Assembly: GCA_963777835.1 (NCBI GenBank)
Contig: CAVZRK010000003.1
Coordinates: 43,429 to 107,428 of the forward strand
DNA: 64,000 nt
Direction of reading: 5' to 3'
From: an uncultured Gemmatimonadales bacterium
Lineage (GTDB): Bacteria > Gemmatimonadota > Gemmatimonadetes > Gemmatimonadales > GWC2-71-9
The notes under the pieces are model-generated. The model saw only the letters and a program-made list of their open reading frames with translations, was not told the DNA's origin and did not search any database. This document shows positions 60,675-64,000 of this stretch, piece by piece. Both the position numbers and the translations under genes were made by a program. Position 1 is the first letter of the stretch, and each line of letters begins with the position of its first letter.

Positions 60675-62198
60675 ATGACACGACGGTTCCTGCTGCTGCT
60701 CGCACTCGCCGCCACGCCGCTCGCCGCCCAGACCGGGGTGGACACGGCCGGCGCCGGCGCCCTGATCGACCAGGCGATGAACAAGTCCCAGGTCATGGCC
60801 AACCTCGGGTACCTCACCGACGTGATCGGCCCGCGGCTCACCGGCTCGGCGGGAATGAAGCGGGCCAACGACTGGACCGAGGCCCAGTTCAAGTCCTACG
60901 GCCTGTCCAGCTGGCAGGAATCGTGGGAGTACGGCGTCACGTGGGAGCGCGGCGAGATCGCCTTCCGCATCGACTCACCCTTCGTCCGGAACCTGACCGC
61001 CCACAGCTGGGCCTGGACGGTGGGCACCGAGGGGAAGACGCTCACGGGGCCGGTGGTGATGGTGGACGTCTCGACGCCCGAGAGTCTTGCGGTGTACAAG
61101 GGCAAGGTGAAGGGGGCGTGGCTGATGCTCCGGCCGCCGACCAGCATCTGGAACCCGGACGGGCCGCCGATGACCGCCGCGGATTCCGCCGCCGCGCAGA
61201 AGGAGCGGGAGGCCCGCGTCGCCGCGATGCGCGCCACCCCGACCGACACGTCGGCGGCCGCGCGCCAGGCCCGGCGCCAGTTCGCCGTGGACCGCAACTA
61301 CCTGCTCAAGAACGCCGGTGCGCTCGGCGTCCTGACCGACGGCTCCAAGGAATTCGGGCTCATGACCATGAGCGGATCGGCGTACAGCATCTCGCCGCTT
61401 CCAAACGTCGTGGTGGCGCACGAGGACTACACCTTCTTCAGCCGCCTGCTCGCGCGGGGTGTGACCCCCACCGTCTCCGGCCGGATCAGCAACACGATCG
61501 GGAAGAAGCCGGTCCAGCAGTGGAACACGGTCGCCGAGATCAAGGGCACCGAGTGGCCGGACCAGGTGGTGATCCTCGGCGCCCACCTCGACAGCTGGGA
61601 CCTCGGCACCGGCACCACGGACAACGCCACCGGCTCGATGGTCGTCATGGAGGCGGCGCGCGTCATCATGCAGAGCGGCCTCAAGCCGAAGCGGACGATG
61701 CGGTTCATCCTCTTCAGCGGCGAGGAAGAGGGCCTGCTCGGGTCGGTGGCGTACGCCGCCAAGCACGCGTCGGACCTGAACAACGTCCAGGCGGTGCTCG
61801 TGCTCGACAACGGCACCGGGATGATCACGGGGCAGGCGCTGCAGGGCCGGAACCAGGATGCCCAGCTCTGGCAGGAGCTGCTCGCCCCGGTGGCGTCGCT
61901 GGGCGCCTCCAAAGTGCGCGAGGCCAACAAGGGGGGCACCGACCACCTGGCGTTCACGCCGTACGGCGTGCCGGCGTGGAACTTCGACCAGGAAACCCGC
62001 GGCTACAACCACACCCACCACTCGCAGATCGACACCTACGACCACGCGGTGCCGGGCGACCTGATGCAGGCGTCGGCGGTCATGGCGGTGACGGGCTTCG
62101 AGCTGGCCAACCTGCCGGCGCTCCTGCCGCGCGGGCCGGTCACCCCGGTGACGCCGCGGACGGTGCTGCCGCCGAGCCCGGGGCTCGCCAAGAAGTAG
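60675..62198 (+). CDS. Exported M28 family metallopeptidase
   Basis: Signal peptide, IGPRLTGS, GAHLDSW, DNATG, GEEEGLLGS, GTDH and HHSQID. Confidence 0.9.
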   Translation: MTRRFLLLLALAATPLAAQTGVDTAGAGALIDQAMNKSQVMANLGYLTDVIGPRLTGSAGMKRANDWTEAQFKSYGLSSWQESWEYGVTWERGEIAFRIDSPFVRNLTAHSWAWTVGTEGKTLTGPVVMVDVSTPESLAVYKGKVKGAWLMLRPPTSIWNPDGPPMTAADSAAAQKEREARVAAMRATPTDTSAAARQARRQFAVDRNYLLKNAGALGVLTDGSKEFGLMTMSGSAYSISPLPNVVVAHEDYTFFSRLLARGVTPTVSGRISNTIGKKPVQQWNTVAEIKGTEWPDQVVILGAHLDSWDLGTGTTDNATGSMVVMEAARVIMQSGLKPKRTMRFILFSGEEEGLLGSVAYAAKHASDLNNVQAVLVLDNGTGMITGQALQGRNQDAQLWQELLAPVASLGASKVREANKGGTDHLAFTPYGVPAWNFDQETRGYNHTHHSQIDTYDHAVPGDLMQASAVMAVTGFELANLPALLPRGPVTPVTPRTVLPPSPGLAKK

Positions 62199-62220
62199 CC
62201 AGCCGCACTCCCGGGTAGCG

Positions 62221-62256
62221 AAGCGCGGTGCGGGGATCGACCCCCGCACCGCGCTT
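62221..62256. terminator. Hairpin between the convergent M28 gene and the small-ORF operon
   Basis: AAGCGCGGTGCGGGG-N6-CCCCGCACCGCGCTT. Confidence 0.7.
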
Positions 62257-62265
62257 TGCATCCAG

Positions 62266-62352
62266 CTACTTCCAGGGAGAGGGCGGAGGTGGTGGCGGGT
62301 CTTTCGTCGCCAGTTCCAGGCCGATTTCCTGGTGCGTCATCATGTGGGACAT
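62266..62352 (-). CDS. 28-aa polyproline-Trp peptide b (MSHMMTHQEIGLELATKDPPPPPPSPWK)
   Basis: Hand translation; AGGAG SD 5 nt upstream; paralogous to 62634-62720; mixed Pro codons. Confidence 0.7.
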   Translation of the reverse strand: MSHMMTHQEIGLELATKDPPPPPPSPWK

Positions 62353-62374
62353 TGCGGCTCCTGGTTCGTGTGCC

Positions 62375-62602
62375 TCAGTGGTGATGCCGGGTGAGTTGCC
62401 GCTCGGCTTTCTCGAGGCGGTCCGTCGTGTCCTTCAGCTTGGCCGCCATCTGGGTTCCCCACTTCTCCATTTCATGCATCCAGAGCTTCAGCGCATCGAC
62501 ATCGAGGATGTCCTCGCTGCGCGCTCTGGTGCGCCAGGGAAGCCGGCCCACCCACTTCCAGTTGCCCCGCACCTTGCTCCAGTGTCCTCGTCGGGTTGCC
62601 AT
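62375..62602 (-). CDS. 75-aa Trp-patterned coiled-coil small protein B
   Basis: AAGGAG SD; NWKW..LPW..LWMHEMEKWG; paralog of 62748-62966. Confidence 0.75.
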   Translation of the reverse strand: MATRRGHWSKVRGNWKWVGRLPWRTRARSEDILDVDALKLWMHEMEKWGTQMAAKLKDTTDRLEKAERQLTRHHH

Positions 62603-62633
62603 GAATCGCATCTCCTTGATCGAGGGGTTGAGG

Positions 62634-62720
62634 TCAGTCCCACGGCGGCGGCGGGGGCGGCGGCGGGTCCTCGGATGCAGCCGGCCGCGCCAGCGGTCCC
62701 GTCAGCGTGTTCGTCATCAT
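62634..62720 (-). CDS. 28-aa polyproline-Trp peptide a (MMTNTLTGPLARPAASEDPPPPPPPPWD)
   Basis: Hand translation; AAAGGAGG SD immediately upstream; paralogous to 62266-62352. Confidence 0.72.
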   Translation of the reverse strand: MMTNTLTGPLARPAASEDPPPPPPPPWD

Positions 62721-62747
62721 GCGCCTCCTTTCGGGCCGGCGAGGCGG

Positions 62748-62966
62748 TCACGCTCGCTCCTCGAGTTCGGACACGCGGGCCTCGAGGTCTCTGCACTTCT
62801 CGGCGACCATCCGTCCCCAGGTACTCATCTCTTTCATCCATTGTGACAATTGCGCTTCATCCCCGCGCCCCATCGTCTGTGTCGTCCAGGGTAGAGGGTC
62901 GGGGTAAGTCCACTTCCAGTCGCGTGCCCGTGGACCCTTGCTGGTGTTAGCCTTCCAGGTGCTCAT
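62748..62966 (-). CDS. 72-aa Trp-patterned coiled-coil small protein A
   Basis: GGAGG SD; DWKW..LPW..QWMKEMSTWG; paralog of 62375-62602. Confidence 0.75.
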   Translation of the reverse strand: MSTWKANTSKGPRARDWKWTYPDPLPWTTQTMGRGDEAQLSQWMKEMSTWGRMVAEKCRDLEARVSELEERA

Positions 62967-62994
62967 GCGGTCCTCCCCTCGGTAATGGTGAATG

Positions 62995-64000
62995 CTACTG
63001 CCTGCCAACGCTGCCGCTGCCCTGCAGGGCCTCAAGCCTTCGGCGGCTCTCTCGCGCCAGTTGCTGATCGCCGACCATGTCTGCTGCCGCGGCGCGGATG
63101 CTCAGGCTCATGGGCAGGAACACGATGTCGGCCAGGACGGCCGGTGCGTCCACGACGCTCGCGGTCTCGATGGCCTCGTAGGGCAGGCGCCGCGCGAGGT
63201 AGAGCTGCGCCAATAGAATCCGATCGGCGACGAGCGATTGCCACGGCATCGACGGTATCAGGTCCTTCGGGGCGGCCGGAGCGTTTGCGGCCAAAATGGC
63301 GATGGCTGCCGCAGTGTCGCTGCGCGCCAGGGCCAGGCGCCCTTCGAGGCTTCGTGCCAACGGCGACTCGCGACCGTGTCGCCGGACGGCGGCCCGGTGC
63401 ATGGCTTCCGTCGCCCCGACGTTGTCGAGTTCCGCGGACCATGCACCGGCAAGCCAAATCGTACCGTCGCCCACGTCGTCCGGTTGCTTCGCGAGGCGGG
63501 TCAAGGTGTTGGCCGCGAATGCCGTCGCCGCGGCTGTGTCCGGCGACCCCGCGAGGACATCCAGGGTCAGGAACAGCTGTCGGGCCACGAGCGGAAACAT
63601 GGAATCGGATTCGACGACCCTGCGCGCGCCGGTCGCGTCGCCCCGGGCCACGAGAATGCCCTGGCGCGCCACGAGGGCGCCGAATCGCAGGGGATCCGAG
63701 GGGTTTGTCTCCCCGACTGCATCTGCGGCCAGCTGGGCGCACTCCACTTGTCGGAGCCCTCCCCCCGTGAGGATCTGCACGGCGTCATACACCAGGGCCG
63801 GATCCCGGGAGGCTACAGACGTCCAGTCAACCGACGTCATGTCGCCAAGCGCACATCCCGTGGCCAAGCGGAGCCGTTCCAGTTCCCGGTCGTCGGGGCG
63901 TCCCGCGGCGAACTCGTCGAGCAGCCGGACCGCCGCGCTGTCGCTGCGTCGGAGCGCCGCCTCGACGAGGTGTGGGAGCGCGGGGGCGAAGGAGGAATCG
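62995..64000 (-). CDS. C-terminal part of a TPR-like receptor protein (paralog of the BTAD regulator at 20674); 5' end outside the window
   Basis: DSSFAPALPHLVEAALRRSD..RLRLATGCALGD aligns by eye with DSASVPALLHRIELAARQGD..FLRWRAAVALGD. Confidence 0.7.
   Translation of the reverse strand, partial: DSSFAPALPHLVEAALRRSDSAAVRLLDEFAAGRPDDRELERLRLATGCALGDMTSVDWTSVASRDPALVYDAVQILTGGGLRQVECAQLAADAVGETNPSDPLRFGALVARQGILVARGDATGARRVVESDSMFPLVARQLFLTLDVLAGSPDTAAATAFAANTLTRLAKQPDDVGDGTIWLAGAWSAELDNVGATEAMHRAAVRRHGRESPLARSLEGRLALARSDTAAAIAILAANAPAAPKDLIPSMPWQSLVADRILLAQLYLARRLPYEAIETASVVDAPAVLADIVFLPMSLSIRAAAADMVGDQQLARESRRRLEALQGSGSVGRQ

Follow-up and report, generated by a model that had tools for sequence, protein, structure and literature searches.

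A putative two-chain module of Trp-rich miniprotein and polyproline-Trp micropeptide behind a receptor-type Ser/Thr kinase gene of Gemmatimonadales

Polyproline-II ligands are bound in the WW, SH3, GYF, EVH1 and profilin systems by small partners with conserved Trp residues, and in the Trp-cage and pancreatic-polypeptide (PP) folds a Trp-bearing helix is followed by a turn and a polyproline (polyPro) segment packed on that helix. Gene fission and fusion give rise to Rosetta stone pairs, in which the same two parts form one chain in some genomes and adjacent genes in others, and RRNPP systems combine a pro-peptide carrying an export signal with a cytoplasmic TPR receptor. PknG, a TPR-bearing Ser/Thr kinase, depends on the neighbour-encoded proteins GlnH and GlnX (PMC8546545), and polyPro runs stall ribosomes, with regulatory use in SecM, MgtL and CadC (PMC12856214; PMC4176338). 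Here we describe a locus to be set beside these systems: four closely spaced open reading frames (ORFs), A, a, B and b in that order, near the end of a 64,000-nucleotide stretch (the window; contig CAVZRK010000003.1, positions 43,429–107,428) in the genome assembly of an uncultured Gemmatimonadales bacterium (G000; 2.8 Mb, 70% GC, 82% complete). A and B encode small Trp-rich proteins, and a and b encode micropeptides that end in a proline run and a Trp. With a probability of roughly one half, we read A plus a and B plus b as two-chain versions of one kinase-associated miniprotein, the polyPro tail docking on its Trp-rich partner.

As in the WW-type systems, a polyproline-II ligand would here face a small partner with conserved Trp residues, and the split forms have a predicted short Trp-bearing beta hairpin; the partner, however, is mainly one long helix without a Pfam match, and its presumed ligand is a separately encoded bacterial micropeptide. 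The WW domain proper is a three-stranded sheet with two Trp residues 20–22 positions apart; A has two predicted short strands, and its W4 and W27 lie 23 apart, B lacking six residues there. Trp-cage and PP-fold miniproteins have the same order of Trp helix, Gly-rich turn and foldable polyPro stretch as some fused relatives of A (the F type, below), but the genes described here are natural, bacterial and kinase-adjacent, their parts lie in two chains, and the likeness is known from sequence and from a model with tail confidence of 69–74. Unlike PknG, the kinase at this locus is ordered as kinase domain, transmembrane (TM) helix and TPR ectodomain, and its candidate partners are unrelated miniproteins with polyPro tails. 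The short ORFs share with SecM, MgtL and CadC a conserved C-terminal proline-rich stretch; those elements, however, precede the gene that they regulate or form part of it (PMC12856214), whereas the present ORF closes its module and has homologs that are fused to a protein. In contrast to the usual Rosetta stone pairs, one of the two parts has merely 20–29 codons, far under gene-calling limits, and in contrast to RRNPP systems no hydrophobic N-terminus is seen in a and b (judged by eye only) and the TPR part of the kinase lies beyond the TM helix. Literature searches on the peptide endings, Gemmatimonad polyproline, TPR and Hanks-type kinases, and gene fission with polyproline II, which had supplements outside their scope, returned no description of the module. 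We rate it as lying outside the known kinds of system; the underlying type of interaction, in which an aromatic receptor recognizes a proline-rich ligand, is itself familiar from eukaryotes.

A degenerate DNA pattern for the ending [DE]-P6-x-P-W-x-stop matched twice in the window and never in 100 shuffles. When a looser six-frame expression (at least four Pro, a Trp, at most two residues, stop) was run over the whole 2.8-Mb genome, seven matches were obtained, and only the window's two lay behind an A/B gene; the other five were taken from the printed frames, unchecked, as Pro/Arg-rich readings of GC-rich DNA in the wrong frame. Genomes and metagenomes together provided 19 peptide ORFs, all with the ending [DE/R]-P6-x-P-W-x-stop and all distinct in the DNA of this block. 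The motif P-P-x-P-P-P-x-P-W is invariant in the 19 sequences, and the TGG codon, the single residue position after it and the distance to the stop are constant in 19/19, while the N-terminal halves differ in sequence and length and the residue between Trp and stop varies (D, E, K, R, Q or T). Over the seven Pro codons, 781 synonymous and 18 non-synonymous pairwise differences were counted, although kinship among the genomes means that the pairs are not independent. All four Pro codons occur in six of the seven columns, and three of them in the remaining one. Such drift of Pro codons at fixed amino acids points to a translated, constrained C-terminus rather than a DNA repeat. A microsatellite was therefore rejected, in agreement with a first-pass annotation of the window, which had argued for selection on protein from the use of CCG, CCA, CCT and CCC in b, all four of which are indeed present. 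Judged by these sequences, the peptide frame is under purifying selection as protein.

With B as the query, five of 61 related genomes were matched, G000 included (four of the 16 other genomes of the genus and none of the 44 outside it). The four relative loci are syntenic, in the order kinase, A, a, [B, b] and convergent peptidase, and their short ORFs all end [EAQK]-D-P6-[PSR]-P-W-[DKR]-stop; G001 has a single module only. When 401 genomes sampled from the phylum were searched with an A/B profile, six were reached; the six belong to a single family-level group, and three of them are from other genera. Of these three, G271 has an A-like gene and a peptide ending T-E-P8-W-E-stop, G158 has an A-like gene and a degenerate peptide ending R-P-P-S-P-P-P-G-P-W-K-stop, and in G192 a separate peptide is absent and the A-like protein itself ends G-D-P-G-D-P-P-P-E-P-E. 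Orthologs of a with synonymous Pro-codon drift were found in G016, G012 and G013 and in metagenome loci L037, L062, L075 and L085, and orthologs of B in the same three genomes (95% identity in G016) and in loci L026, L037, L072, L075 and L085. A downstream ORF of 20–29 amino acids (aa) with a Shine-Dalgarno (SD)-like stretch accompanies 25 of 26 distinct A-family frames, the exception being G192; the 26 include the window's two, and the A of G013, which fell under the cut-off, was read by hand. The gap from A to the peptide runs from -4 to +41 nt, the start is ATG and once GTG, and the SD-like purine-rich stretch was judged by eye. Stop and start overlap as ATGA or GTGA in several relatives, the stop of A overlapping the start of a (ATGA) in G016 and G013.

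When metagenomes were scanned by the peptide pattern alone, 73 matches in 70 loci were obtained, 46 of them with a true stop, and 12 of these 46 (nine loci) lie behind an A-profile gene (E from 3e-28 to 4e-13). One locus, L088, holds a further b-type peptide, cut by the contig end, and the remaining matches were out-of-frame or unrelated. Viral contigs gave 14 matching pattern stretches and no relatives. The endings follow the type of the partner: A-type proteins pair with P-P-W-[DE], B-type with S-P-W-[KRTQ] (K-D-P6-S-P-W-[KRTQ]-stop in 7/7 B-type loci) and distant-type with K-P-W-[KR]. Protein and peptide were kept as a unit in every relative found, as diverged paralogous pairs with type-specific endings, and a check for homologs lacking a downstream polyPro-Trp ORF found that ORF in every split homolog with visible context. 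The first-pass annotation had taken the two for cognate partners because they were duplicated as a unit; direct binding of a by A is something that we infer. Two side observations came from the same scan. At L059 a Trp-rich ORF of about 70 aa, beyond the reach of the A profile, is followed by a frame ending K-E-P8-W-K-stop and then by a convergent kinase, and may be a more distant family member. Eight loci (L027, L033, L049, L063, L065, L083, L084 and L086) encode an unrelated family of 262–303 aa membrane proteins ending N-P-E-P6-[EQ]-P-W-x-stop.

The A protein has four N-terminal Trp residues, a core helix W-M-x-x-M-x-x-W-G and a coiled-coil-like tail. BLASTP aligned A with B at 36% identity over 56 residues (E=1e-7), which bears out their first-pass description as diverged paralogs, and W43 and W50 (A numbering) are invariant in 36 family members. 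A profile search of 1.84 billion representative proteins returned 21 members and a word-index search three, so the family is rare. In an AlphaFold2 (AF2) model of A, made with an 11-sequence alignment (mean predicted local distance difference test score, pLDDT, 78.4), strands were predicted at residues 5–7 and 18–20 (pLDDT 75–79) and a helix at 37–71; Foldseek found no match for this model in the PDB. No named family had been recognized for A and B, and none was found in Pfam, NCBIfam, PADLOC or PDB. Specifically, a Pfam scan of A and B (E<=1) returned no family, the WW domain PF00397 included; A, B, a and b gave a single chance-level match (E=0.078) across Pfam and NCBIfam, and the fused forms gave none; PADLOC had no match for A and B; the PDB, searched with a sequence profile, yielded nothing but chance matches to coiled coils (E of at least 0.019), and the ESM Atlas only unnamed clusters (score at most 0.85). 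By sequence, A and B appear to belong to a small family of helical miniproteins, rich in Trp and as yet undescribed, that is tied genetically to one kinase clade of the Gemmatimonadales.

The two paralogs differ in their recent history. Between G000 and G016, A is 65–68% identical, whereas B and the C-terminus of the kinase are 95% identical, and a strain contig carries three 1-nt indels at 62733–62756, the 3' end of A; together these suggest that A evolves faster or was exchanged. In most members, as judged by eye, the third Trp (W27 in A) is followed within two residues by a Ser or Thr (W-R-T, W-Q-T, W-T-T, W-R-S), which might be phosphorylated by the neighbouring kinase.

The kinase gene stops 28 nt upstream of the A start on the same strand and encodes 938 aa. 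Pfam domains were assigned at residues 25–279 (Pkinase, E=9.7e-51) and 482–583 (TPR_11, TPR_16 and TPR_19), and a single strong hydropathy peak of 1.79 was detected at residues 304–322. One TM helix at about 304–322 places the TPR part outside the cell membrane, and by this predicted topology the protein is a receptor-type Hanks Ser/Thr kinase whose catalytic domain is cytoplasmic and whose TPR-containing part, of about 615 aa, is extracytoplasmic. A search of the genus with its last 334 aa returned close orthologs (54–95% identity) in exactly the four genomes with A/a, and distant paralogs (29–38% identity) in five others. In tblastn searches, the kinase or its TPR part was found upstream on the same strand in eight of the nine metagenome loci, the ninth having too little upstream DNA. 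The module is the 3' end of a kinase-headed operon, and in all data at hand its linkage to the kinase is obligatory; the four ORFs are, as far as their sequences tell, real and presumably translated genes of that operon. The pair had been presented as a two-gene module; it is not free-standing but follows a receptor kinase on the same strand wherever upstream DNA is present. The PADLOC matches of the kinase (PD-T4-6 and mad6) span the generic kinase domain only and are not taken to indicate a role in defence.

Relatives in which the two parts form one chain were found behind related kinases. A kinase of this type was detected at E<=1e-15 in 49 of 201 family genomes (a tally that includes G101, a genome with no part in the other results), and 40 downstream regions were taken. 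The A profile matches eight of these regions, and seven of the matches end in a fused tail, G-[DE]-P-G-[DS]-P-P...; the form at L145 ends D-P5-W-T-stop, and an example of such a D-polyPro(-Trp) tail on an A-like protein is ...GDPGDPPPPPWT-stop. Fused and split forms align over the shared core helix. In the F type (2/40 regions were of this Gly-linker kind) a Trp helix is fused through a Gly linker to T-P5-x-W-P-P; in G009, G011 and G004 this is a protein of 66–70 aa, with a Trp-bearing helix ending W-G, four to six Gly and T-P5-K-W-P-P-A-stop. Twelve other regions contain small proteins with Pro-rich ends that include an aromatic residue, several of which begin with a TM helix or lipobox. In G003 the protein behind the kinase resembles a lipoprotein and ends K-P-P-P-K-Y-P-P-S-stop. 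As a control, open frames of at least 50 aa with at least five Pro in the last 16 residues and an aromatic in the last eight were counted; they occurred in 17/40 regions on the kinase strand, in 0/40 on the reverse strand and in 166 of 4000 random 1-kb windows of G000. Given a polyPro(-Trp) tail fused to A-like homologs, a detached protein tail is the best reading of the micropeptide. N-terminal of the core helix, the eight fused forms have 0, 1, 1, 0, 0, 0, 1 and 1 Trp residues and the 11 peptide-verified split forms have three to five, which would agree with a role of the additional Trp residues in holding the free peptide.

Two further arrangements were seen in these kinase-linked regions. 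At L121 (G510:C122:16431-17691) two tandem proteins of about 95–130 aa lie between two convergent paralogous kinases, each with an N-terminal hydrophobic helix, and end N-P6-D-W-E-stop and P5-W-E-stop. L148, L152, L123, L142, L135 and L153 have internal P7–P8 runs or G-G-G-R-G-D-D-P-P-P-P repeats, which are not terminal tails.

In the mechanism that we propose, the D-polyPro-(aromatic) tail would be encoded apart in the lineage of the window, as a micropeptide of 20–29 aa with its own SD and often coupled to the stop of A. Its prolines would form a Trp-capped polyproline-II rod, and the rod would dock on a cognate Trp-rich surface, either the N-terminal Trp cluster or the face of the W-x6-W helix, the two docked chains rebuilding the single-chain architecture of the fused relatives. 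The pair may then act at the cytoplasmic side of the kinase as a substrate, docking adaptor or regulator; this side is suggested because A/B and a/b are without an export signal by eye and the TPR part lies outside. Duplication would have given two pairs with different peptide endings. A more specific version, which we offer only tentatively, is a recognition pair in which the polyPro-Trp micropeptide is captured by a Trp-rich mini-receptor, both together gating the kinase or being read by it, with two orthogonal pairs and a supply tied to EF-P or proline.

Several points weigh against the two-chain reading. Translation and binding are both inferred from sequence, and the genomes are related metagenome-assembled genomes, so that the counts are not independent events. 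The tail motif is also found on membrane-anchored or lipoprotein-type small proteins next to paralogous kinases, which is in keeping with a common receptor that is borne by the kinase and not by A. The contrast in Trp counts could mark two subfamilies and not compensation for the split. For the fused protein at L145, AF2 modelled the helix with a pLDDT of 90–98 but the tail with only 69–74. Eight consecutive prolines are costly to translate, and the cost itself may be the point of the peptide. The RNA evidence consists of one RNA library among 23 runs, from which a single 169-nt contig covers only 62510–62634 and could be DNA carry-over. A complex prediction for A and a scored 0.18 against a mark of 0.32; the peptide is below the 30-residue calibration range and the prediction had no controls, so the score speaks neither for nor against binding.

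The layout of the locus is given in Table 1. ORFs were listed from 20 aa upwards, and the minus strand of 61900–63300 was read directly. All four minus-strand ORFs, in the order A-a-B-b, their own SDs and the closing hairpin were found where the first-pass annotation had placed them and with the same lengths, and a and b share their C-terminal register (E-D-P8-W-D and K-D-P6-S-P-W-K). A GGAGG, AGGAG or GGAG stretch stands ahead of every one of the four starts, and the gaps are 27 nt between A and a, 31 between a and B, and 22 between B and b. The hairpin begins 9 nt past the stop of b, and its 101-nt stretch folds at -55.1 kcal/mol (z=-5.4), as well as which none of 200 shuffles folds. It is likely a two-way transcription stop; it has no U tract and was not called by a simple consensus terminator scan. 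The M28 peptidase ORF on the plus strand ends at 62198. A promoter scan, which is a weak test, found no promoter-like site in 61800–64000. The stop of A (TGA) and the a ORF share one frame with nine sense codons between them, and read-through of this single TGA would yield a fused A-a chain. Such joining is not possible for B and b, which are out of frame, or for the relatives with ATGA overlap, and was rejected.

Table 1. Coordinates of the module and its flanking features in the window
Feature	Coordinates	Strand	Description
A	62748-62966	minus	72-aa Trp-rich small protein; ORF listing and SD
a	62634-62720	minus	28-aa micropeptide ORF, ending E-D-P8-W-D-stop; SD AAAGGAGG 5 nt ahead of ATG
B	62375-62602	minus	75-aa paralog of A, counted from the second ATG, 9 nt behind AAGGAG
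b	62266-62352	minus	28-aa micropeptide ORF, ending K-D-P6-S-P-W-K-stop; SD AGGAG before ATG
Hairpin	62221-62256		Perfect 15-bp GC-rich stem; between the convergent b and M28-peptidase genes
Ser/Thr kinase gene, 3' part	62995-64000	minus	Runs past the window end; whole gene is L005:2424-5240:-

The alternative to which we give the largest, though still minor, chance is that the polyPro-Trp tail or peptide docks on the kinase itself, A/B and a/b being separate ligands or substrates and A not binding a. Candidate sites would be the cytoplasmic juxtamembrane segment or the kinase domain, to which the window's own cytoplasmic proteins would be confined, or the TPR ectodomain for exported variants, and TPR domains often bind C-terminal peptides. 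The kinase is the sole constant neighbour of all the tail-bearing small proteins (A-like, F-type, TM-anchored and lipoprotein-like), and as these are diverse and some are exported, a receptor borne by the kinase has to be taken seriously. The TPR part is, however, extracytoplasmic, whereas inspection of A, a, B and b by eye, without a signal-peptide or hydropathy scan, showed neither a signal peptide nor a hydrophobic stretch; and a kinase-borne receptor does not explain why the peptide endings are specific to each paralog or why the split forms have an additional Trp cluster.

It is rather unlikely that the micro-ORFs are devices of translation rate, in which a stall at P8 near the stop, avoided when EF-P or proline is in sufficient supply, alters a neighbouring cistron, mRNA stability or the folding of the hairpin. 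D-P-P and P-P-W may be among the strongest stall contexts, the conserved part comprises only the C-terminal 11 or so residues and the exact distance to the stop, and G000 encodes EF-P. Against such a device, b and the single-module peptide of G001 are the last genes before a convergent one, with no same-strand gene to follow, the same tail forms part of a protein in the fused homologs, paralog-specific endings were retained over time, and the residue ahead of the stop is variable. Downstream of the G271 and G158 peptides only short frames occur in the ORF lists. Among L052, L076 and L079, which were checked for kinase only, L052 and L079 have convergent kinase matches downstream, and L079 also has a same-strand kinase match about 1.1 kb downstream. 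Stalling may nevertheless be a built-in property of the peptide.

The first-pass annotation had also raised a toxin and antitoxin, or a toxin and inhibitor, as the nature of the pairs, and the small size of the neighbouring genes, their close or even overlapping arrangement and the joint duplication would be in keeping with this. Fused homologs of the two parts, as natural single chains, and the lack of any match of A/B to a toxin or antitoxin family in Pfam, NCBIfam or PADLOC speak against it, as does the fact that the pair is never alone but follows the kinase where upstream DNA is present, at syntenic chromosomal loci in five genomes and in none of the viral contigs; we consider such a pair very improbable. 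The same low chance is given to an exported signalling peptide or a precursor of a ribosomally synthesized and post-translationally modified peptide, with the conserved C-terminus as mature product. A variable N-terminus before a conserved C-terminus and an adjacent sensor kinase with a TPR ectodomain would suit this explanation, but the six largest neighbouring ORFs include no modifying enzyme, protease or exporter by Pfam, no signal peptide was seen by eye, and in the fused forms the tail belongs to proteins that look cytoplasmic. It is hardly credible that the ORFs arose by chance in GC-rich DNA and that DNA or RNA, not peptide, is what is conserved, for although CCN repeats are common at 70% GC (a run of at least four Pro occurs in some frame of 665/4000 random 610-nt windows), here CC is fixed while the Pro third positions vary, all 19 sequences retain the frame, the TGG, the distance to the stop, the SD and the ATG, and the pattern is expected zero times in the window.

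Short ORFs of 20–29 codons escape gene callers, yet those described here are conserved across genera under clear purifying selection, and the natural fused and split versions indicate what the peptide belongs to, making the module a tractable case of a micropeptide as a detachable protein subunit and a possible bacterial counterpart of proline-rich-motif recognition. It also gives access to a clade of Gemmatimonadales receptor Ser/Thr kinases that has yet to be characterised, in a phylum for which very little signalling biology is known. The two diverged pairs in one operon form a natural test bed for peptide-receptor specificity, and the minimal helix-plus-polyPro architecture may interest protein engineers. 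If true, the two-chain recognition pair would represent a type of kinase accessory module not seen before, one whose obligatory subunits include the product of a gene of fewer than 30 codons.

Further upstream, just beyond the window end, lie a QueF gene (L005:5290-5685, minus strand) and, at L005:5764-9531 on the same strand, a gene for a 1255-aa regulator of SARP- or AfsR-like type with BTAD, Trans_reg_C, AAA_16 and TPR domains. By Pfam, the six largest ORFs of the neighbourhood encode the kinase, QueF, this BTAD-AAA-TPR regulator, a He_PIG protein, an acyl-CoA dehydrogenase and the M28 peptidase.

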